NCBI GenBank assembly: GCA_951812955.1
Contig: OX638340.1
Span: forward strand, 2,752,001 to 2,816,000
Length of the DNA stretch: 64,000 nt
Direction of reading: 5' to 3'
Source: an uncultured Gemmatimonadota bacterium
Lineage (GTDB): Bacteria; JAAXHH01
In this document: one piece after another, positions 18,723 through 51,980 of the stretch
Numbering within the stretch: position 1 is the first letter of the stretch
How the letters are laid out: the number at the start of each line of letters is the position of its first letter
Notes under the pieces: model-generated
The model's input: only the letters and a program-made list of their open reading frames with translations
What the model was told of the DNA's origin: nothing
The model's database searches: none
Translations under genes and position numbers: made by a program

Positions 18723-19376
18723 TCATTCATCCAGGAAAGCGAGACGGTGCTTGAGGGCCAGGAGTATGAGATCCGGCAGATTGTGGACTTTCAACTTCTT
18801 CATCAGGATCGCGCGGTGTTTTTCCACGGTCTTGTCGCTGATGTTCAGGACCTCCGCCGCGGCCTGATTGGTATGTCCCTCGACGATGAGCTGAAGTATC
18901 TCCCGTTCGCGGGATGAAAGCTGCTCCAGAACGGCCTTTGACTCATTCGCCGATTCCGTCTGCAGGAATCCCGATAGCACGGTTTGAGCAATCGAAGGTG
19001 AAAGATAGATTTCGCCCTTGTTGGCGGACCGGATGGCGATCAGGAGTTCCTCCACGACGGATCTCTTGAGGAGATACCCGCTGGCCCCGCATCTGAGCGC
19101 CTGGCGCACCACGTCCTCATCCGAATGCATGGATAGTATGACGACGCGGGTATCGACGGACAGCGTCTGAATCCGCCGCGTGGTCTCGATACCGTTCAGC
19201 AAAGGCATGGCGATATCCAACATGGCGACGTCCGGTCTCTTCCGTTGTACCAGGTTCAGGGTCTCGTGACCATCGGCCGCTTCGCCGACAACTTCCATAT
19301 CCTCGGCCTTTTCGATTAGAGACACGATGCTTTGACGGACCAGTTGGTGATCGTCGGCAATAACGATCCTGATCAT
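18723..19376 (-). CDS. LuxR/NarL-family response regulator (REC + HTH), paralog
   Basis: MIRIVIADDHQLVRQSIVSLIE... LSSREREILQLIVEGHTNQAAAEVLNISDKTVEKHR. Its start overlaps the kinase stop (ATGA). Confidence 0.9.
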   Translation of the reverse strand: MIRIVIADDHQLVRQSIVSLIEKAEDMEVVGEAADGHETLNLVQRKRPDVAMLDIAMPLLNGIETTRRIQTLSVDTRVVILSMHSDEDVVRQALRCGASGYLLKRSVVEELLIAIRSANKGEIYLSPSIAQTVLSGFLQTESANESKAVLEQLSSREREILQLIVEGHTNQAAAEVLNISDKTVEKHRAILMKKLKVHNLPDLILLALKHRLAFLDE

Positions 19377-35431: not shown

Positions 35432-36307
35432 ATGAACTTGCACGAAGTGTTTACCCGATTCCCCGATCAGAAAGCCTGTATCGACCACCTGGAAGCGATC
35501 CGTTTTGCAAACGGCGCATATTGCCCGTTGTGCGGGAGCATGGAGAACGTCCGCCGGTCCAACCTGAAAAGCCGTGTCGGACGCTGGAACTGCCATGACT
35601 GCAAATCCTCGTTTAACGTCCTATCCGGTACGCCGTTATCCGGTACGCATATCCCGTTGCCCCGATGGTTCGCGGTCATGGCCCTGATGGTCAATGCCAA
35701 GAAGTCGCTGTCGAGCCACCAGTTGGCGCGGGATCTCGGATTGACCCAGCCTACGGCCCTGTACATGCAGGAACGCCTACGGGCGGTTATGGCATCCGAT
35801 CAAGCCGGTATGCTGGCCGGCATCATCGAAGCGGACGAAACCTACGTGGGCGGACGCCCGCGCAAGCAGAACAAGCGCGACGATTCCCCGACCGGCGGAC
35901 AGGGTAAATCGGACAAGACCCCGGTAATCGGCGCAGTCGAACGAGATGGCAAGGTCGTGGCGAAGATCGCCGATGACATGACCGGCAAGGGCGTGCTGAA
36001 CTTCATCCAGACCGCCGTAAGTCCGGCGGCTCAGATACTGGTTACCGATGAGAACAAGGCATATCGGGCGGTACGCGGCATGATGGCGCACAGCGTGATC
36101 AATCACCGTTACGAGTACGTCAACGGGCCGGTACACACGAACACGATTGAAGGGTTTTGGAGCCTGTTAAAACGGGCGTGGTACGGCAGTCATCACAAGT
36201 ACACGGTCGGACGTATGCCGTTGTTTATCGCGGAAGCGGCTTGGAAGTACAACCACCGGAAAGACGGATGCGCGTGGGACAGTTTCACGCGTGCATTGTT
36301 CGCGTAG
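35432..36307 (+). mobile_element. IS1595-family transposase gene (IS ends not defined)
   Basis: 291 aa. N-terminal zinc-finger (CPLCGS...CHDCKS) and DDE region (ADETYVGG...DENKAY...NTIEGFWSLLKR) typical of the IS1595/ISXO2-like family. Local GC drop. Confidence 0.8.
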
Positions 36308-36325
36308 ACAGGAACTCGTTTTCGC

Positions 36326-37576
36326 TTAGACGGGCGATAAGATACTCCATAGGCCGGTCGCCCTTGATCTTGTTGCAATGACCACATAGCAGTTGCAGGT
36401 TGCCGATATGACCCCCCCCCCCTTCGACTGTGGCACGACATGATCGACCTCGAAATGCCGGTAATCGAACGAGTATTTACACCCGTTGCATTGCCCCTCT
36501 TGCTCTCCGAACAGGATATGCTTCGTCTCCCTGTTCTTGTACATCACGTCCAGCACGCCCTCTTGCTTCGGTATATCCTTCCGGTGGATGATATCCCCGA
36601 ACAGCCCGTGATGATCCCGTAGACGATGCTCCACGAGTTCCACGGCCTTCTCCGACAGGTCGATCCCCGCCCATTGCCTCAAGTGCGTTTCAGCCGAAAC
36701 ACACGCGGTAGCGCATCCACAGAACGGATCCAAGACCACGTCGCCCTCGTTGCTGGATGCAAGGATGATGCGTTCCAACAACGCAAGGGGCTTCTGGGTT
36801 TTGAACCCCGTATATTCCTTACCTCTGAGGAAGGGTATATGCGTAATCCAATCTTCAGGAAACTTGCCATTTGGGTTTAGTTCGCAAATCCCTGAAGATG
36901 GTCTCCCAGAACCCAAAGACGATTTAGCGTAGCCCGACCGATTTCGGGATGATTCAGCGTATGGAAGACGTATCGGATCGACGTTGAACGTCCACTGGTC
37001 GGTCTTAGCGTAGAAAAGTATAGTATCGTGCGCCCTCGACAATTGCCGTTGCCTGTTACCGGCCATTCGAGAATAACACCATACAATCTCGTTTCGGAAG
37101 CCAGACCGCCCGAAAACTACATCCATGAGCGTTTTAAGGTAGTGGCTGGCCGTCGGGTCGCAATGCAGATATATCGACCCCGTAGACTTCAATACGCGGC
37201 GCATCTCGATCAAACGCACGGCCATCATGCACAGATACGATTGTGTGTGTTTCCCATGCGCCAAGCCCGCCGTTTCCACTACTCGATACAATGCCGGTTC
37301 CGTGTCTGCGATCAGTCCCATCCAGGCCACATCCAGGTCGGAGAGGGTCCATGTATCCTTGAACGCGGCCCCGGCCGCCTTGCTGCCGATGGGCGCCGCA
37401 TAGTTCCGGTTCGAGTTGAACGGCGGATCAAGGTATATCAGGTCCACGGATTCGGAGTTCATGCCGCGTAGAATGTGCAGGTTGTCGCCCGTCCATATGG
37501 TACGGTTGACCCAGTTAGGAGCAGCCATAGACGCCCTTTCGACAACGGCCCCGAAGTTCCCCCCGGAGCCGTTCAC
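36326..37576 (-). CDS. Beta-class DNA amino-methyltransferase (N6A or N4C) fused to a C-terminal HNH nuclease domain; HNH frame disrupted at a G11 homopolymer
   Basis: Motif IV DPPF (DLIYLDPPFNSNRNY) precedes motif I (VVLDPFCGCATACV). C-terminal CNGCKYSF...VDHVVPQSKGG starts an HNH motif. The as-read frame then gives VISATCNCYVV. A +1/-2 shift at the homopolymer restores GNLQLLCGHCNKIKG. Confidence 0.75.
   Translation of the reverse strand: MNGSGGNFGAVVERASMAAPNWVNRTIWTGDNLHILRGMNSESVDLIYLDPPFNSNRNYAAPIGSKAAGAAFKDTWTLSDLDVAWMGLIADTEPALYRVVETAGLAHGKHTQSYLCMMAVRLIEMRRVLKSTGSIYLHCDPTASHYLKTLMDVVFGRSGFRNEIVWCYSRMAGNRQRQLSRAHDTILFYAKTDQWTFNVDPIRLPYAESSRNRSGYAKSSLGSGRPSSGICELNPNGKFPEDWITHIPFLRGKEYTGFKTQKPLALLERIILASSNEGDVVLDPFCGCATACVSAETHLRQWAGIDLSEKAVELVEHRLRDHHGLFGDIIHRKDIPKQEGVLDVMYKNRETKHILFGEQEGQCNGCKYSFDYRHFEVDHVVPQSKGGGVISATCNCYVVIATRSRATGLWSILSPV
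36412..36422. repeat. C11 (G11 on coding strand) homopolymer tract inside the HNH-coding region
   Basis: Eleven consecutive C residues counted from the sequence. Confidence 0.9.
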
Positions 37577-45242: not shown

Positions 45243-47048
45243 ATGAGGTACCTGGTTGCGGCCTGTCCGCTCCTGGTCCTGTCGATCCTGGTCGCCGCTC
45301 CGGCGCATCCCCAACAGTCCCTCATCGTCGACCGCATCCTGATCGAAGGCAATGCGGCCATCCCGGAAGACCGGATTCTCGATCTGATCGAGACCAGAAC
45401 GGACGGGATACTGCGCAGCGGAAGGATGAACAACGCCGTATGGCGGACCGACCTGGACGCGATCGGGAGTTTCTACATGAACAGCGGATTTCTGGAAGCC
45501 CGGATCCGGTACATTCGCGAGCGTATTGAAGCGGATCGGATCGAGTTGAGGATCGTTATCGACGAGGGCCCCAGATACACCGTGCGCGCGGTCAATCTGC
45601 ATGGCTTCGGATTCCTTGCCGAGGATGAGATCAGGCAAAGCCTTCTGACGAGGGAAGGCCAGGTATTCTACCGGCTGTTCACCGCGACGGACAAGCGCTA
45701 TATCCAGCGTCTCGGCGACCGCAGGGCATTGCTCGACATGACGGTTGACTATCAAGTCGTGCAGCATCCGGAAGATCATACGGTGACGGTCAATTTCCTG
45801 GTCGTCGAAGGCCATCCGATCCGTGTGGGCGACATAAGGGTCGGGGGTCTGAGGAAGACGCAGCGAAACGTGGTGATCCGTGAATTGGAGATCGAATCGG
45901 GAGAGCTGTACGATAACGGGAAAATATCTTTGAGCCAGACCCGGCTCTTCCAGACGGGATTGTTCCGAAGCGTGCGCCTGTCACCCGTGGAAAGCGACAC
46001 CGCCGCCAACGTGCGGGACCTGGTGGTGGAGGTTACCGAACTGCCCGGGGGGGAGGTGAGCTTCGGCGCCGGGTTCGCCTCGGCCGAACACTTCAGGGGC
46101 AGCTTCAGCGTCGCCTACCGGAACTGGCTGGGGCAGGGGATCACCATCGGCTCCAACGGTCAGATCAGCTCGCTATTGCAGCAAGTGGACACCGGAATCA
46201 CGCAGCCGTGGTTGTTCAGGACCCGGACGACGGGCATACTGCGGGCGTTTTACCGTCGTGAGGACCGGACCAGCCACTCCGAGCGCGAAGTAGGAATGTC
46301 CGTAGCGGTCAACCGCGAACTCTCCCGCACGTACCAGAGTCAACTGATCTATACCCTGAAAAACATCGAAGTTTCATCGCTCAGCGAGGAATTGACCGAA
46401 CTGCTTCGAAGCGGTTCGGAACCGGACAGCCTCCGGACCAGGCGCGAGGGCAGTCTGACCGGGGTCGTTACCTACGACACCCGGGACGATATCCTGAACC
46501 CGACGAGGGGATTCTACGGACAATTCCAAAGCAGCCTGGCCAGTCCGCTGCTCGGCAGTTCCACCCAGAATCGCAACTCGGTACTGACGATTATTGCCGT
46601 AGCCCGCAAATACCTGTCCGTTCCCAACGCCCCGGATTTCTCCACTTCCCTGACGTTCAGCTACGTGAAGGCGCTGGACGATAACCGGGTGCCCCTCGAT
46701 CGGAAACTCTTTATCGGCGGCGACCGGTCGGTGCGGGGTTTCAGGATCAACCAGATCGGCCAGCCCGATGGCGGACTGATCGCCATCAGCGCACAGAATG
46801 AAGTCCGTATTCCATTTCCCCTGTTTAGCCTGGCCGTGTTCGCGGACTGGGGCGGAGTTGGAAAGACAGTGGACACTTTCAGCTTCGACGATCTCCTCCT
46901 GGGCTACGGCGGCGGAATAAGGGTAAATTCGCCGATCGGGCTGATTCGAGGCGACGTGGGATTTCACAATCAAAGCAAGATCGACGTGCCAAATTCGAGA
47001 AAGTACGACCGGACCTTCTTCTACTTCGGCCTCGGCCAGGCGTTTTGA
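45243..47048 (+). CDS. tamA: Omp85-family outer membrane protein assembly factor (TamA/BamA-like; POTRA + beta-barrel)
   Basis: Signal peptide MRYLVAACPLLVLSILVAAPAHP. POTRA-like repeats. C-terminal beta-barrel ending ...DRTFFYFGLGQAF (aromatic terminus). Adjacent to tamB. ORF begins at 45174; an internal Met was chosen. Confidence 0.75.
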   Translation: MRYLVAACPLLVLSILVAAPAHPQQSLIVDRILIEGNAAIPEDRILDLIETRTDGILRSGRMNNAVWRTDLDAIGSFYMNSGFLEARIRYIRERIEADRIELRIVIDEGPRYTVRAVNLHGFGFLAEDEIRQSLLTREGQVFYRLFTATDKRYIQRLGDRRALLDMTVDYQVVQHPEDHTVTVNFLVVEGHPIRVGDIRVGGLRKTQRNVVIRELEIESGELYDNGKISLSQTRLFQTGLFRSVRLSPVESDTAANVRDLVVEVTELPGGEVSFGAGFASAEHFRGSFSVAYRNWLGQGITIGSNGQISSLLQQVDTGITQPWLFRTRTTGILRAFYRREDRTSHSEREVGMSVAVNRELSRTYQSQLIYTLKNIEVSSLSEELTELLRSGSEPDSLRTRREGSLTGVVTYDTRDDILNPTRGFYGQFQSSLASPLLGSSTQNRNSVLTIIAVARKYLSVPNAPDFSTSLTFSYVKALDDNRVPLDRKLFIGGDRSVRGFRINQIGQPDGGLIAISAQNEVRIPFPLFSLAVFADWGGVGKTVDTFSFDDLLLGYGGGIRVNSPIGLIRGDVGFHNQSKIDVPNSRKYDRTFFYFGLGQAF

Positions 47049-47108
47049 ACGGCGTAACCGGTCAAGTTTCCAAAATCGAGATGCCGCGAAGTCGCTGGGA
47101 GATGGGGC

Positions 47109-47699
47109 TTATTCGAGATTGGCATGGCGATCGAACATGTCGCCTTCGGTTTCATCGAGCCGCGCCATGATCAGCAGGACGCCGGCATCGAGAACCACAC
47201 CGAGGCTCTGTTCGAACAGCGTGCCCATCGGCTGGCGGGACTGGAGTTCCCGGTCGCCCGACACTTTCGTAGATTTCGGCGTAGGCGCTGGTATGACGAC
47301 GACGATGTCCGCCATCCGGGCGACGGGAGACGCGGAATCCGCGGTCGCTAACGCAACGCGCGCGCCGGCCTCGGCGGCTTTACCGGCATAGTGGACCAGC
47401 CGTTCCGTCACGCCCGATCCCGATCCGATCAGCAGCAAATCTCCCGATCCGATCGCCGGCGTGGTTGTTTCGCCCACCACGTGGACGGGCAGACCGAGTT
47501 GAGCAAGCCGCATGGCGAAGCTCCTCATGACCAGCCCGGAACGTCCCGCTCCTGCGACAAAGACCCGCCGGGCCTCGGTGACTTCCCGTGCCAGCGCTTC
47601 GACCTCTTCGCAGGAGACCTGGTTCAGAGTCCGCCGTATCTCGTCGAGAACTGTCCGCCGGATGTCGTCAAATGGGGAAGGGGATTTCTGGTTATTCAT
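47109..47699 (-). CDS. hxlB: 6-phospho-3-hexuloisomerase (SIS domain)
   Basis: SIS motifs VFVAGAGRSGLVMRSFAMRL and LLLIGSGSGVT; 196 aa. Overlaps the HPS gene. Confidence 0.75.
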   Translation of the reverse strand: MNNQKSPSPFDDIRRTVLDEIRRTLNQVSCEEVEALAREVTEARRVFVAGAGRSGLVMRSFAMRLAQLGLPVHVVGETTTPAIGSGDLLLIGSGSGVTERLVHYAGKAAEAGARVALATADSASPVARMADIVVVIPAPTPKSTKVSGDRELQSRQPMGTLFEQSLGVVLDAGVLLIMARLDETEGDMFDRHANLE

Positions 47700-48345
47700 C
47701 GATTCGATCCATGACCTCCCTGATCCGTCGGATAGCTTGGCCGGGATCGGCGTTTCCGGTAACGTAACCTCCTACGATCACGATATCCGGTTCATGGGGA
47801 ACCAGGCGCTCGATCATCCTGGGATTCAGTCCACCCGCGACGGCCCGCCCCGCCCGTTCAACAACCGCGTTGACCCGGTCGAAACCTTCCAGGGTCCGCT
47901 CGGGATCGCTCTGCCCCTGGTTGTCAAAAGCCGTGTGCACACAGATGTAGTCCAGCCCGGACAGATCCAATTCGCGGGCCAGGAAGACGGCCTCGTCCAC
48001 TTCGCGTGCGGCGATCAGGTCGGCCATGATCTGGCCGCCGGACCGCTTCGCCCGTTCACAGGATTCTCGAAGCGTAGCCTGGTGGGCCGTCCCAAGCACG
48101 GTAACGATATCCGCTCCCGCATCGAATGCGAGGCCCGCTTCCATAGCGCCGGCATCCACGATCTTGAGATCCGCCAGCAACTTCCTGTCGGGATATTCCC
48201 GCTTGATCTCGGAGATGATGTCGATCCCGTAACGGATCAGCAGGGGGGTTCCGAGCTCGATGATGTCCACGTGGACGGCGGTCTGCTCCAACAGGCGGCG
48301 AACCGCCCCCGCTTGAGGCTTGTCCAGGGCGAGTTGGAGCAACAT
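47692..48345 (-). CDS. hxlA: 3-hexulose-6-phosphate synthase (OMP-decarboxylase fold)
   Basis: MLLQLALDKP...VDIIELGTPLLIRYG...KLLADLKIVDAG is characteristic of HPS/KGPDC family members; 217 aa. Confidence 0.75.
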   Translation of the reverse strand: MLLQLALDKPQAGAVRRLLEQTAVHVDIIELGTPLLIRYGIDIISEIKREYPDRKLLADLKIVDAGAMEAGLAFDAGADIVTVLGTAHQATLRESCERAKRSGGQIMADLIAAREVDEAVFLARELDLSGLDYICVHTAFDNQGQSDPERTLEGFDRVNAVVERAGRAVAGGLNPRMIERLVPHEPDIVIVGGYVTGNADPGQAIRRIREVMDRIDE

Positions 48346-48401
48346 GATGGCCGGGCTCGCTTGGAGGAGGCGGACTTCGCATCCTGTCCGCCTGACCTGA
48401 T

Positions 48402-49178
48402 TTATTCCGGGTGGTCGCCGATACAGACCCGGAGCAGGTTAGGGTGTCCCGGTATATCCTTCGTACCGGCGCCGTAACCGATTTTTCTCAACACCATCTT
48501 TGGCGGAACACCGTGCCCGTCGGCCGTGGCTTTAAGAAACGCGGCGCCGGTCGGAGTGACCAACTCACCCTCGATACCGGTGTGGTAAACTGGCATGTCC
48601 CGCATCAGTTCCAGCGCGCCCGGGGCGGGTACCGGCATAAGACCGTGTGCACAATGGATAAAGCCCCTTCCCATCGGCAGCGCCGAGGCGTACACCATTT
48701 CTATGTCAAGCAGGGCCAGGCCTATGCATGCGCCCACGATGTCGACGATGGCATCGACCCCGCTGACTTCGTGCAGGTGGACCTCCCGTTTCGAAATGCC
48801 GTGTACCTTGCTTTCCGCCGTCGCCAGATGATCGAATACCTGGATCGCCCGCCGCCTGACAGCTCCGTCAATCGTGCTGCCTTCGATTATGGAAGTCAGA
48901 TCTTCGAGGTGCCTTGCTTCTCCGTGGTCGTGGTAAGGCCCGTCCTCGCCGGGTCCCTCGATGATTTCACGACCCTCCGCGGTCTGGACGATGACGTCGA
49001 CCTTGGTCCCGGCGATGTATTGCCGGGTCACTGTTTTCCGGGTGAGCCGATAACCGTCGAGAGGAAGTTTTTGCAGTTCGCCGCTCAGCGCGTCGAAATC
49101 CAGGCCGGCGTCCACCAGTGCGCCGAGGATCATATCGCCGCTGATTCCGGAGAAACAGTCGAAGTACGCTATGGCCAT
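48402..49178 (-). CDS. larC: LarC-like (DUF111) nickel-insertion protein, N-terminal domain only
   Basis: MAIAYFDCFSGISGDMILGALVDAGLDFDAL is the hallmark DUF111 N-terminus. 258 aa, so only the LarC1-like part. No LarC2 is evident nearby. Confidence 0.6.
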   Translation of the reverse strand: MAIAYFDCFSGISGDMILGALVDAGLDFDALSGELQKLPLDGYRLTRKTVTRQYIAGTKVDVIVQTAEGREIIEGPGEDGPYHDHGEARHLEDLTSIIEGSTIDGAVRRRAIQVFDHLATAESKVHGISKREVHLHEVSGVDAIVDIVGACIGLALLDIEMVYASALPMGRGFIHCAHGLMPVPAPGALELMRDMPVYHTGIEGELVTPTGAAFLKATADGHGVPPKMVLRKIGYGAGTKDIPGHPNLLRVCIGDHPE

Positions 49179-49258
49179 GCATCCGCCCCATACATAAATG
49201 ACCGGACGATCTGAGTAAATCGTCCGGCCATGAGAAACTACAGAATAGGCTGGTCCGG

Positions 49259-49996
49259 CTACCTGCGGGAGTCGCCGTCGGCATTCGTTTCACCGCCCGT
49301 TTCCCCGGCGTCGCCCGCGTCACCCGCGTCCGCACCGCCGTCGGCATTCGCTTCACCGCCAGCGTTCCCGGTGTCGCCCATGCCACCCGTGTCCGCGCCG
49401 CCGTCGGCATTCGCTTCACCGCCAGCGTTCCCGGCGTCGCCCATGCCACCCGTGTCCGCGCCGCCGTCGGCGTTCGCTTCACCGTCAGCGTTCCCGGCGT
49501 CACCATCATCGCCAACCCCTTCGGTCATTTCCTCTTCGGTCATTTCGGCTTCTTTCAATTCCAGGGCGACGAGCAGTTCATCCACGTCTTCGGGCCAGGC
49601 TTCGTTCATTTCCAGCGCGATCGTCAGTTGATCGGCAACGAGTTCCATGGCCTCTTCCGCGATGCCCATTTCTCCCAGGCTTTCCTTAAAACTCTTCCCG
49701 TCGTACTCGATCTCACCCCCGGCGACCAATGTGAATTGGGCCAGCAGGTCCGCTTTCCACGCATCCTGGTCGACCCCTTCGAGTTGGCCCTTCAACTGCT
49801 CTTCTTCCACGGCCGCGTCGACGAAATCATCGATCACGCCCATAATCATTTCTTCACCGCCCAGGCGGTCATAGAGGGGACCGTCCATCACCCATTCCAT
49901 GTTCGGGTCGTCATGCTGGGCATGCAGGGGTGCGGCGGTACCGATCAGCAGGAATAGCGCGGGAAGCGCCACGGAAGTCAAAGCCATGCGAATCAT
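49259..49996 (-). CDS. Secreted truncated-hemoglobin (group I trHb) homolog lacking the proximal His, with acidic Gly/Asp/Asn tandem-repeat tail
   Basis: Signal peptide MIRMALTSVALPALFLLIGTAAPLHAQ. LYDRLGGEEMIMGVIDDF...FTLVAGGE colinear with HbN-type trHbs, but Leu replaces the expected F8 His and FV replaces the B10 FY. C-terminal about 21-aa repeats GGMGDAGNAGGEANADGGADT. Confidence 0.55.
   Translation of the reverse strand: MIRMALTSVALPALFLLIGTAAPLHAQHDDPNMEWVMDGPLYDRLGGEEMIMGVIDDFVDAAVEEEQLKGQLEGVDQDAWKADLLAQFTLVAGGEIEYDGKSFKESLGEMGIAEEAMELVADQLTIALEMNEAWPEDVDELLVALELKEAEMTEEEMTEGVGDDGDAGNADGEANADGGADTGGMGDAGNAGGEANADGGADTGGMGDTGNAGGEANADGGADAGDAGDAGETGGETNADGDSRR
49270..49505. repeat. 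About 63-bp tandem repeat x about 3.5 (coding the acidic tail of the trHb-like protein)
   Basis: Repeated unit ccgccgtcggcattcgcttcaccgccagcgttcccgg(t/c)gtcgcccatgccacccgtgtccgcg, read from the sequence. Confidence 0.8.
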
Positions 49997-50159: not shown

Positions 50160-50990
50160 TTACAGGAGACAGGTGTCGATTACATGAGCGACACCGTCCG
50201 CGTCGTTGGTCGGCGCGACCAGGTCCGCCGCGCGCCGAACCGTGTCCGGCGCGTTCCCCATGGCGACGCCGAGTCCGGCGTATTCGATCATGTCCAGGTC
50301 ATTGAAGTTGTCGCCGATGCTGATCATTCGCTCGGATCCGATACCGTAGCGTTCGCCGAGGAATGCGAGGGACTTCGCCTTGGACACGCCGGCAGGTACG
50401 ATTTCCATGCACCAGTAGTCGCCCACCAGGGTGCTTCGCGACAGGATAATGCCGATCCGGTCGCCGAATTCAGCCAGTTCCGCCTTCAGCTCATGCATGG
50501 ACGATCCCCTTCCGGCCACGGCGATCTGCGCAGGGTCCCGGCTGAGCACCTGTTCCAGGCCGTCCACCTGAAAGACCTTGTCTGCGTTGGCCTCCAGGTA
50601 GCGTTCCCGCCAGCCGTTCGCCGAGCGGGGCAGTTCAACCCAGATGTACCGGCTTTCCGGTACCGGTTCGTAAACGAGGGGATCGTGTCCGCGCCGTTTG
50701 CAGAAATCAACCAGGTCGACTGCCAGTGCCCGCGGCATGTTTACCGCCCTGAGCAAAGGACCGTCGAGGGATTCGAGTATGAGCGCGCCGCTGTGGAAGA
50801 TCAGCGTCGTGGAAGGCGGTACCTTTTCCGCCGCGGCCCGGCCGGAGTTGAGGCTTCTCCCGGTGCAGAGCGCCACGCGCTTTCCCGCCGAGACGGCTCT
50901 TCGAAGGGCCTGGAGCGTTCCGGCGGAGATCTCGCGCCGGGACGTCAGCAGCGTGCCGTCGATGTCGATGGCGATCAGGTCGTAGGACAT
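50160..50990 (-). CDS. Cof-type HAD-IIB family hydrolase (sugar-phosphatase-like)
   Basis: MSYDLIAIDIDGTLL motif I, CTGR motif II region, and GDNFNDLDM motif IV; 276 aa. Confidence 0.8.
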   Translation of the reverse strand: MSYDLIAIDIDGTLLTSRREISAGTLQALRRAVSAGKRVALCTGRSLNSGRAAAEKVPPSTTLIFHSGALILESLDGPLLRAVNMPRALAVDLVDFCKRRGHDPLVYEPVPESRYIWVELPRSANGWRERYLEANADKVFQVDGLEQVLSRDPAQIAVAGRGSSMHELKAELAEFGDRIGIILSRSTLVGDYWCMEIVPAGVSKAKSLAFLGERYGIGSERMISIGDNFNDLDMIEYAGLGVAMGNAPDTVRRAADLVAPTNDADGVAHVIDTCLL

Positions 50991-51008: not shown

Positions 51009-51838
51009 TCAGGGTATGAAGCGCTCGATAGCCCGGGCGACGCCGTCGTCGTCCACGGAAGCCGTGACATGGTCCGCAAGGGCGCGGACTTCGGGTGGTC
51101 CGTTTCCCATGGCCACGCCCAGGCCCGCCACGTCGAGCATTTCCAGGTCGTTCAGGTTGTCTCCCACCGCCATGACCTCGGTGAGATCGATCCCGAGTAG
51201 CTGGGCCAGTCTGCGCAGTCCGTCGCCCTTGGACACGCCAAAAGGCATGACCGTGATGACACTGTAGCAACGATCCCATGGACTGATTTCGAAGACCACG
51301 CTCGTGTTCGGAAGATGTGCCCTGATGTGTGATTCCCGGCATCTGACCCGTTCGTTGCGCTCGGCGACCGTTATGCAGGTGACGTCCTGCCCGAGATAGT
51401 CGCACAGGTCGTCCACCCGGTGAACGCGGTCGGCGTTCTGCGCGGCGTAGTCGATAAACGCGTGGTTGTCCGGATCTAAGGAATCATAGTAGAAGTATCG
51501 CACTTCAGGTAGCGGGCCGTACACGATGGGATGAAACCCGATGCTGCGAAACACGCGCACGGAATCCATCGCGAGATGATTCGAAAGGTGTCGCAAATAC
51601 CTGGCGCGACGATTGGGGGCGTCGTAAATCATGGCGCCGTTGTTCAGCACGTACGGTACGTTCAACGGTAGATGCCGCACGGCCTCTTCAGCGGATGGCA
51701 GGCTACGCCCCGTGCATACCGTGACGAAGACGCCGCGGCCGACCGCGTGCCGCACCGCGTCCGCCGTGGCGACGGTCATGACCTTTCTTCCGTCGATCAG
51801 CGTGCCGTCGATGTCCAGGGCGAGGAGACGATACATGA
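51009..51838 (-). CDS. Cof-type HAD-IIB family hydrolase (paralog)
   Basis: MYRLLALDIDGTLI...VCTGRSL...GDNLNDLEM. ORF extends upstream through the tRNA genes; start set at the conserved Met (276 aa, same length as its neighbour). Confidence 0.8.
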
Positions 51839-51906
51839 TATAACGGATTAAAAAAAACGGAGACTTATGGAAAGCCTCCGCCTTTCGTTTCAGACCTTGT
51901 ACCCGA

Positions 51907-51980
51907 TGGGCGCTAGTGGACTCGAACCACTGACCTCCACGATGTGAGCGTGGCACTCTAACCGGCTGAGCTAAGCGCCC
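51907..51980 (-). tRNA. tRNA-Val (anticodon CAC)
   Basis: Manual fold of the reverse complement: acceptor GGGCGCT/AGCGCCC; D-arm GCTC...GAGT; anticodon stem CCACG/CGTGG with loop CTCACAT; T-arm AGTGG TTCGAGT CCACT; discriminator A. Confidence 0.7.

Follow-up and report, generated by a model that had tools for sequence, protein, structure and literature searches.

A 64,000-nucleotide stretch of DNA from an uncultured Gemmatimonadota bacterium (contig OX638340.1, positions 2,752,001 to 2,816,000; hereafter the window) encodes, one behind the other, a stand-alone nickel-insertion domain of the cyclometallase LarC (LarC1-solo) and the two enzymes of a ribulose monophosphate (RuMP) module, 3-hexulose-6-phosphate synthase (HPS) and 6-phospho-3-hexuloisomerase (PHI). 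The reading that we favour, and hold to be reasonably likely, joins three statements: HPS and PHI make up an RuMP module, their adjacency to LarC1-solo is positional, and LarC1-solo acts as a functional insertase half. The three minus-strand open reading frames (ORFs) singled out in the initial annotation, which was made from the sequence alone, were confirmed in the ORF list of the window:

47109-47699, minus strand: PHI/HxlB, 6-phospho-3-hexuloisomerase, 196 aa, SIS domain (TIGR03127, PF01380)
47692-48345, minus strand: HPS/HxlA, 3-hexulose-6-phosphate synthase, 217 aa, OMP-decarboxylase/HUMPS barrel (TIGR03128, PF00215)
48402-49178, minus strand: LarC1-solo, stand-alone nickel-insertion domain without the LarC2 half, 258 aa (PF01969, TIGR00299.2)

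The LarC1-solo protein

The 258-aa protein, whose N-terminus reads MAIAYFDCFSGISGDM, had been taken for the LarC1 half of LarC only, a claim that hung on a match to the DUF111/LarC profiles. Both profiles match, PF01969 (Ni_insertion) with an E value of 1e-86 and TIGR00299.2 ('nickel_LarC1') with 206 bits (cut-off 90). The PF01969 match covers only profile positions 1-234 of 375, and its counterpart in the solved Moorella thermoacetica LarC is residues 1-236, the LarC1 domain (PDB 12bi, E 6e-62). Because the profile and PDB 12bi matches are both confined to LarC1, the protein is exactly the LarC1 half. According to the 2026 cryo-EM model of LarC, LarC2 binds CTP and CMPylates the substrate and LarC1 forms the Ni-C bond, for which the nickel-binding His cluster and acidic pocket of LarC1 are the proposed site (PMC13510736). 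The 258-aa protein has the whole LarC1 domain with N-terminal motif, His cluster and acidic pocket, and lacks the CTP-binding/CMPylating LarC2 domain both as a fusion and immediately downstream.

Alanine substitutions that cripple the M. thermoacetica enzyme (LarC_Mt) were reported for D15, R71, E104, H108, H116, H118, E119, D124, D128, H160, Y180, E187 and H226 (PMC13510736). Counterparts of all of them are present in the 258-aa protein, as D15, R89, E122, H126, H134, H136, E137, D142, D146, H178, Y198, E205 and H245. Among the 14 residues of LarC_Mt at which an alanine substitution reduces activity 13 are conserved, the sole difference being H53, a Q here, the substitution of which had a moderate effect (PMC13510736). 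H72 of LarC_Mt, substituted there with no substantial effect (PMC13510736), is conserved as H90, and the position of H70, for which no substitution was reported in LarC_Mt, lies in a variable His-rich loop.

An alignment of 16 sequences of the LarC1-solo clade (57-99% identity) has 106 invariant columns, among them those of the acidic pocket for the substrate and of the Glu proposed to be catalytic. Twelve of the 13 crippling-class residues are invariant in it, R89 falling outside the invariant and near-invariant columns, and at least 16 sequences share the position of the stop, after PNLLRVCIG. From the retained LarC1 residues we conclude that, as far as conservation tells, LarC1-solo is a functional and strongly constrained protein that keeps the insertion machinery. 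The clade is an unusual variant of a known family, with the LarC1 active site kept and the defining LarC2 domain absent from its loci.

LarC2, LarB and LarE across LarC loci

To place LarC1-solo among its relatives, 160 LarC loci (labelled L with a number) were pooled from species-representative genomes and metagenomes. LarC2 lies directly downstream, fused or as an adjacent ORF, in 140 of the 146 non-clade LarC1 homologs with sufficient downstream sequence, and the 145 distinct loci with both halves comprise 131 fused and 14 adjacent-split ones. The window gene is neither fused nor adjacent-split, as opposed to the 96% of relatives with LarC2; this answers the question, raised with the initial annotation, of whether such genes are fused or split. 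In 13 of the 14 adjacent-split loci, mostly from Poribacteria, LarC2 is read in the -1 frame with respect to LarC1 (L008, L010, L016, L017, L020, L031, L038, L061, L066, L094, L098, L141 and L162). L. plantarum larC has a programmed -1 frameshift, and the frame of the split loci suggests that such frameshifting of larC is widespread, rather than that these are truly separate genes.

No LarC2 was detected in the 64-kb window by tblastn with 41 full-length LarCs (best E value 0.13 outside the LarC1 ORF). The earlier remark that larB and larE are not in view holds for the window at its full length, where tblastn with verified LarB and LarE references found neither and Pfam scans of 37 window ORFs found no LarA, LarB or LarE. 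Likewise, LarC2, LarB and LarE are missing within 8-10 kb at 14 clade loci (12 distinct LarC1 sequences), from about ten genomes. In L175/L176 and L177, LarC1-solo itself is the sole PF01969 gene called, and none of its neighbours there, several of which have no Pfam match at all, carries a Pfam domain of the AIRC (LarB-type) or PP-loop ATPase (LarE-type) kind. Furthermore, a LarC2-half query (from the Gemmatimonadetes LarC of L070) had no match on LarC1-solo genome contigs among the best 120 of 644 matches, which is a weak negative because it covers those best matches only.

The LarC1-solo clade is monophyletic in a LarC1 tree with 12 distinct sequences of the clade, on a stem of 0.147 compared with a median internal branch of 0.026, and counts at least 25 clusters in the protein database; a metagenome scan for additional members yielded one only, L095. 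Its sister group includes Poribacteria, Latescibacterota and a Gemmatimonadetes metagenome-assembled genome (MAG) with a normal 403-aa LarC. Elsewhere in the family, LarC1-only genes stand directly beside verified LarB and LarE, without LarC2 in reach, in five loci: L076 and L086 from Desulfobacteraceae and L138, L147 and L153, unlabelled metagenome contigs of the same LarB/LarE-linked layout. By their gene content these five are candidates for a LarC2-independent nickel-pincer pathway. The L086 and L147/L153 clusters also adjoin an aldehyde:ferredoxin-oxidoreductase-like gene.

The rival explanation that survives best, though we consider it rather unlikely, is an ordinary split LarC, in which LarC2, larB, larE and a user enzyme lie elsewhere in the genome and LarC2 acts in trans in the canonical CTP-dependent pathway. 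Separate LarC1 and LarC2 ORFs do exist, as the 14 adjacent-split loci show, all catalytic LarC1 residues are retained in LarC1-solo, and lar genes are often dispersed: of the first 81 non-clade loci, only some one in four has LarB or LarE within 10 kb, and in the Poribacteria loci L007/L008 and L094 LarC likewise adjoins TCA-cycle and malate-dehydrogenase genes and not lar genes. By analogy, activation and insertion are carried out by separate proteins for the bacterial molybdenum cofactor (PMC13510736). However, LarC2 is immediately adjacent in every split case, where the prevailing -1 frame suggests joining by frameshift and not action in trans, and the integrity of the linker matters in the solved enzyme (PMC13510736). 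The LarC2-half search, weak negative that it is, also speaks against this explanation.

The HPS/PHI pair

The initial annotation named the two genes behind LarC1-solo as HPS and PHI with an 8-bp overlap, and both identities stand: PHI scores 224.1 bits against TIGR03127 (RuMP_HxlB, cut-off 160) and HPS passes TIGR03128 (RuMP_HxlA) narrowly, with 204.1 bits for a cut-off of 200. PF00215 spans HPS residues 1-208, its full length. Among solved structures HPS is closest to known HPS enzymes (3f4w, E 6e-37; 9lj9, E 6e-35; 3ajx, E 1e-29) and much farther from KGPDC/SgbH (E about 1e-15) and OMPDC (E about 1e-7), and the best solved relatives of PHI are Bacillus subtilis YckF (1m3s, E 1e-37), the HPS-PHI fusion 9lj9 and MJ1247 (1jeo). 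The junction ...GATGAATAA... reads ...ATC GAT GAA TAA in the HPS frame and ATG AAT AAC in the PHI frame; the stop codon TAA of HPS occupies 47692-47694 and the start codon ATG of PHI 47697-47699, so that the genes overlap by 8 nt, an overlap that is also kept in relatives. The homologs of HPS form about 82 clusters (58-97% identity), the few with a source name being Gemmatimonadetes/-ota, and in the HPS phylogeny that had been called for the window protein falls in a Gemmatimonadota-specific group. As read from profile scores and junction, the pair is a bona fide, translationally coupled and already known RuMP module in a new host lineage. It would convert formaldehyde and ribulose 5-phosphate to hexulose 6-phosphate and further to fructose 6-phosphate, reversibly. 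Direction and role are inferred: in a heterotroph its use would most likely be formaldehyde detoxification together with assimilation, though the sequence also fits reverse-RuMP pentose synthesis, the other role put forward in the initial annotation.

The slot behind LarC1

What follows LarC1-solo differs between branches of the clade. The order HAD-HAD-hypothetical-LarC1-HPS-PHI is kept in the close relatives read (LarC1 83-99% identical), and a member with 79% identical LarC1 (P0023) has HPS on the same 65-kb contig. LarC1-HPS-PHI occurs again in L175/L176, with LarC1 65% and HPS 51% identical to those of the window and a gap of 12 bp. In L005/L006, L091, L092, L093 and L177 (LarC1 57-67%), a GH51 alpha-L-arabinofuranosidase, or a fragment of it, comes directly after LarC1. 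These carriers represent at least four deeper branches, the deepest in the neighbour-joining (NJ) tree included, and share the block dnaG-GHMP kinase-HAD-HAD-globin-(CopC/CopD)-LarC1-arabinofuranosidase...cytochrome c554-bamA-tamB. Outside the clade, neither HPS nor PHI was found near LarC in about 150 loci.

The GH51 arabinofuranosidase would thus be the ancestral occupant of the slot after LarC1-solo, and HPS/PHI would have replaced it in the lineage of the window and in one other sub-lineage. A single acquisition of HPS/PHI common to the window group and L175 is not supported by the LarC1 tree (bootstrap 0/200); in the HPS tree, the HPS of L175 (with P0324) is closest to the window group, weakly. 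Because the pair occupies a variable slot behind a fixed LarC1, the adjacency of LarC1 and HPS/PHI is most likely positional; the genes are maybe co-transcribed, with no sign of a shared biochemical pathway. The coupling of HPS/PHI to a nickel-pincer gene that the initial annotation implied thereby holds in part: the adjacency is real and locally conserved, but it reflects no general association, given its absence from the non-clade loci and the arabinofuranosidase in deeper clade members.

The slot is also set apart by its divergence. Compared with L001, protein identity is 97% for the first HAD protein, 92% for LarC1, 76% for HPS and 75% for PHI, and DNA identity in the LarC1-HPS-PHI segment (47109-49288) is 84.7%, with flanks at 95% on the dnaG side and 91% on the bamA/tamB side. 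The same segment is 94.6% identical to that of the MAG APA_bin_41 (L011). This mosaic divergence from L001 suggests recombination or allele replacement at the slot. The ratio of nonsynonymous to synonymous change (dN/dS) is 0.06-0.19 for LarC1, a mark of strong purifying selection, 0.23-0.40 for HPS and PHI and 0.14-0.19 for DnaG, and dN of HPS/PHI is 2-3 times that of LarC1.

Downstream of PHI, the interval to bamA (window 47048-47109) is without about 1.7 kb found in all close relatives (L011 2190-3948, L001 12058-13816, L012 12084-13839), which encodes a hypothetical protein of 541-558 aa with no Pfam match; more distant relatives have a cytochrome c554-like gene in this interval too.

Gene string and transcription signals

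LarC1-solo, HPS and PHI end a co-directional string that runs dnaG, tRNA-Met, tRNA-Val, HAD, HAD, globin-like gene, hairpin, LarC1-solo, HPS and PHI, with bamA and tamB downstream on the opposite strand. The region is part of the conserved Gemmatimonadota genome backbone between dnaG and bamA/tamB. Besides the three genes above, its features are:

48369-48392, minus strand: GC-rich stem-loop GGCGGAC-N10-GTCCGCC in the 56-nt LarC1-HPS spacer; no U tract, not terminator-like
49198-49231, minus strand: conserved hairpin with a 13-bp stem, then TTTATGTAT; terminator-like match with 15 pairs, ending 20 nt before the LarC1 ATG
49259-49996, minus strand: secreted truncated-globin-like protein, 245 aa counted from an internal ATG; weak PF01152 match (E 0.0016)
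50160-50990, minus strand: Cof-type HAD-IIB phosphatase, 276 aa; TIGR00099 149 bits (cut-off 137), PF08282; found ahead of LarC1-solo in each clade locus that extends to it
51009-51836, minus strand: second Cof-type HAD-IIB phosphatase, 275 aa; TIGR00099 152 bits
51907-51980, minus strand: tRNA-Val(CAC), found by ARAGORN and Rfam RF00005
51986-52061, minus strand: tRNA-Met(CAT), found by ARAGORN and Rfam RF00005

The stem of the 49198-49231 hairpin is kept in 7 genomes, with variable loop and flanks, and two one-sided G/A changes in it leave the sense strand paired, as G.U or A-U. This element could terminate the globin-like gene, or it could be a stem in the 5'-UTR of LarC1-HPS-PHI. Hairpins upstream of LarC1 were also found in other lineages. 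A terminator scan of the minus strand between LarC1 and HPS returned none, and with a hairpin upstream of LarC1 and no terminator between LarC1 and HPS, co-transcription of LarC1, HPS and PHI appears plausible. At the gathering threshold, the two tRNAs (74 and 68 bits) were the sole Rfam matches in the window, with no known regulatory RNA either ahead of LarC1 or between LarC1 and HPS.

The tRNA pair sits between dnaG and the HAD genes, with a sigma-70-like promoter match (10/12) at 52128-52100, and its stretch is 86% identical to L175, where the flanking genes reach just 64-69%. A 315-aa version of the second HAD ORF (51009-51956) is not a real gene, as it overruns tRNA-Val and its orthologs have 275 aa; the real start is at 51836. 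The globin-like protein is 54% identical to a PF01152-annotated ortholog at the same position in L091. Its acidic GDAGNAGGEANADGGADTGGM-type C-terminal tail is encoded by a tandem repeat at 49273-49501 (63 bp x 3.6 copies, 91% matches; Tandem Repeats Finder), which on the opposite strand gives rise to long spurious ORFs rich in Pro, Ala and Ser. The lineage of the window has lost CopC/CopD and also the GHMP (galactokinase-like) kinase found elsewhere behind dnaG.

Among public records the Gemmatimonadetes MAG APA_bin_41 comes nearest, with LarC1 99% identical as protein and DNA 93-95% identical; other Gemmatimonadetes/-ota MAGs are also close, as are three closed chromosomes, each about 3.7-3.9 Mb long. 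Closed chromosomes with LarC1-solo are OZ241920.1, OZ252103.1 and ERZ21861969 ctg21612c. The isolate names of the related MAGs, together with Poribacteria as the next-nearest LarC and HPS relatives, suggest that the host is probably sponge-associated.

Weighing the explanations

We propose that an ancestor of LarC1-solo lost, or was separated from, the CTP-dependent activating half LarC2, and that the protein would still bind nickel and insert it into a ligand of the pyridinium-bisthiocarboxylate type. Its substrate might be an already nucleotidylated, P2TAD-like dinucleotide, which would yield an NPAD-type cofactor; LarC1-solo would then need no LarC2, because the substrate already bears the nucleotidyl group. 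Alternatively, LarC2 might be encoded at another site in the genome and act in trans. We rank these two proposed options about level, and both above another metal-related role. For action without LarC2 we count the conversion of P2TAD, an AMP-carrying analogue, to cofactor by full-length LarC (PMC13510736), the existence, according to work cited in PMC13524815, of a natural adenine-dinucleotide nickel-pincer cofactor, NPAD, and the LarC1-only genes beside LarB and LarE in the five other loci.

Several observations weigh against the combination of an RuMP module, positional adjacency and a functional insertase half. LarB, LarE or a user of the LarA, AKR or OCD type was seen in no clade locus, and because the rest of the pathway was not seen there LarC1-solo may act outside pincer-cofactor synthesis. 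An altered LarC1-LarC2 linker reduced activity to below 10%, contrary to an unlinked LarC1 that works efficiently in the canonical reaction; the cryo-EM model leaves open how the two distant LarC sites cooperate, the linker being shown to be needed (PMC13510736). Moreover, the order in which HPS/PHI and arabinofuranosidase were gained and lost is tentative, because it is read from NJ trees of short proteins. Finally, LarC1-HPS-PHI is present in two sub-lineages with HPS only about 51-53% identical, and the spacers of 12-56 bp, the hairpin upstream of LarC1 and the lack of a terminator-like site between LarC1 and HPS, all on one strand, fit an operon with a shared function.

That LarC1-solo, HPS and PHI are a single operon of functionally linked genes is nevertheless unlikely in our view, and so are its variants, in which a nickel or nickel-pincer step feeds or regulates sugar-phosphate or formaldehyde metabolism, or LarC1-solo metallates HPS or PHI. 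Such an operon gains from the hairpin that sets off the globin-like gene, in other lineages too, from the nickel-pincer enzymes now known to use C5 and C6 sugars (PMC13524815) and from the sugar-related neighbourhood (GHMP kinase, Cof-type phosphatases, arabinofuranosidase). It is however arabinofuranosidase, and not HPS/PHI, that lies downstream in the deeper clade branches, and HPS/PHI adjoin none of the other LarC genes. HPS is Mg2+/Mn2+-dependent and PHI is cofactor-free, and the match of each to canonical solved enzymes spans the full length. The faster change of HPS/PHI, too, does not suggest a unit tightly co-adapted with LarC1. Improbable as well is a bolder reading, in which LarC1-solo is a self-sufficient cyclometallase acting on an adenine-dinucleotide pincer precursor and its fixed position, heading a short operon of sugar or sugar-phosphate enzymes (HPS/PHI or arabinofuranosidase), would reflect a new nickel-pincer-dependent step of carbohydrate or formaldehyde metabolism.

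A role outside cofactor biosynthesis, in the binding, storage or chaperoning of nickel or another metal and tied to the CopC/CopD and globin-like genes, seems to us quite improbable. It draws on the lack of a lar partner in any clade locus and on the neighbours of LarC1-solo: the gene for the secreted globin-like protein precedes LarC1-solo in nearly all members, and in L091, L093 and L175/L176 CopC and CopD follow the globin-like gene, directly upstream of LarC1-solo. The His-rich inserts are long in deeper members, as would suit a metal-binding role, but amount to only a few residues in the lineage of the window; the invariant acidic pocket and proposed catalytic Glu would be needless for a mere metal binder, and hairpins lie between LarC1-solo and the upstream genes. 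The last candidate, a decaying pseudogene remnant of a full-length larC, to which the missing C-terminal third of the family profile might point, is effectively refuted by a dN/dS as low as that of DnaG and by the conserved position of the stop, and no LarC2 remnant was found downstream in any frame. The functional insertase half beside a positionally adjacent RuMP module is the reading that we keep.

Other observations in the window

Between about 12000 and 24000 the GC content is 0.50-0.57, compared with 0.59-0.65 elsewhere in the window. This part encodes NHL/six-bladed beta-propeller (DUF5128) proteins, a MauE/DoxX membrane protein, a thioredoxin-like protein, a LuxR-type response regulator with a similar-looking ORF beside it (18723-19376) and a PDZ-containing histidine kinase, and may be an acquired island. 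At 35432-37576, between a DtxR-like repressor and glnE, an IS1595-family transposase adjoins a DNA methylase with HNH (N6_N4_Mtase + HNH_5); a similar methylase-HNH gene comes directly after LarC2 in the Poribacteria locus L094.

Significance and comparison with known systems

LarC1 without LarC2 across a whole clade offers a natural test of the autonomy and substrate of the nickel-insertion half. It is also a warning for annotation and genome mining: 'LarC' (IPR002822/PF01969) has been used as a marker of nickel-pincer synthesis (PMC13524815), and matches to it may be half-enzymes, in genomes whose remaining pathway is unproven. Of less weight is the HPS/PHI part, as a formaldehyde-fixing module in a probably sponge-associated lineage and a case of gene replacement at a fixed chromosomal slot.

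The HPS/PHI pair resembles hxlA-hxlB of Bacillus subtilis, rmpA-rmpB of Mycobacterium gastri and the archaeal HPS-PHI fusions in being adjacent, co-directional and translationally coupled, with passes of the NCBIfam equivalogs and full-length matches to 3ajx, 3f4w, 9lj9, 1m3s and 1jeo. It differs from them in that no HxlR-type regulator was seen, in its place behind a LarC1-only gene in the genome backbone and in evolving faster than its neighbours. Compared with the LarC cyclometallases of L. plantarum and M. thermoacetica (12bi), LarC1-solo lacks LarC2, the seat of CTP binding and CMPylation and the core of the hexamer, which is neither fused nor adjacent, and larB and larE are not nearby. 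The split larC1/larC2 genes (the L. plantarum frameshift; Poribacteria L007, L009 and L094) share with it the same LarC1 end, PNLLR..G, in an ORF of 254-290 aa. In those loci, LarC2 lies within 0-81 nt of the LarC1 end or overlaps it, nearly always in the -1 frame, whereas in the window HPS comes next instead. The LarC1-only ORFs of L076, L086, L138, L147 and L153 (255-267 aa) are like LarC1-solo in having no LarC2 in the locus, but belong to bona fide lar clusters (LarB NF033503, LarE TIGR00268), and their proteins are only about 50% identical to that of the window and are not its sister group. Activation and insertion are separable in a similar way in MogA/MoeA (the G and E domains of Cnx1) of molybdenum cofactor synthesis (PMC13510736), with unrelated folds, so that the analogy is one of logic only.

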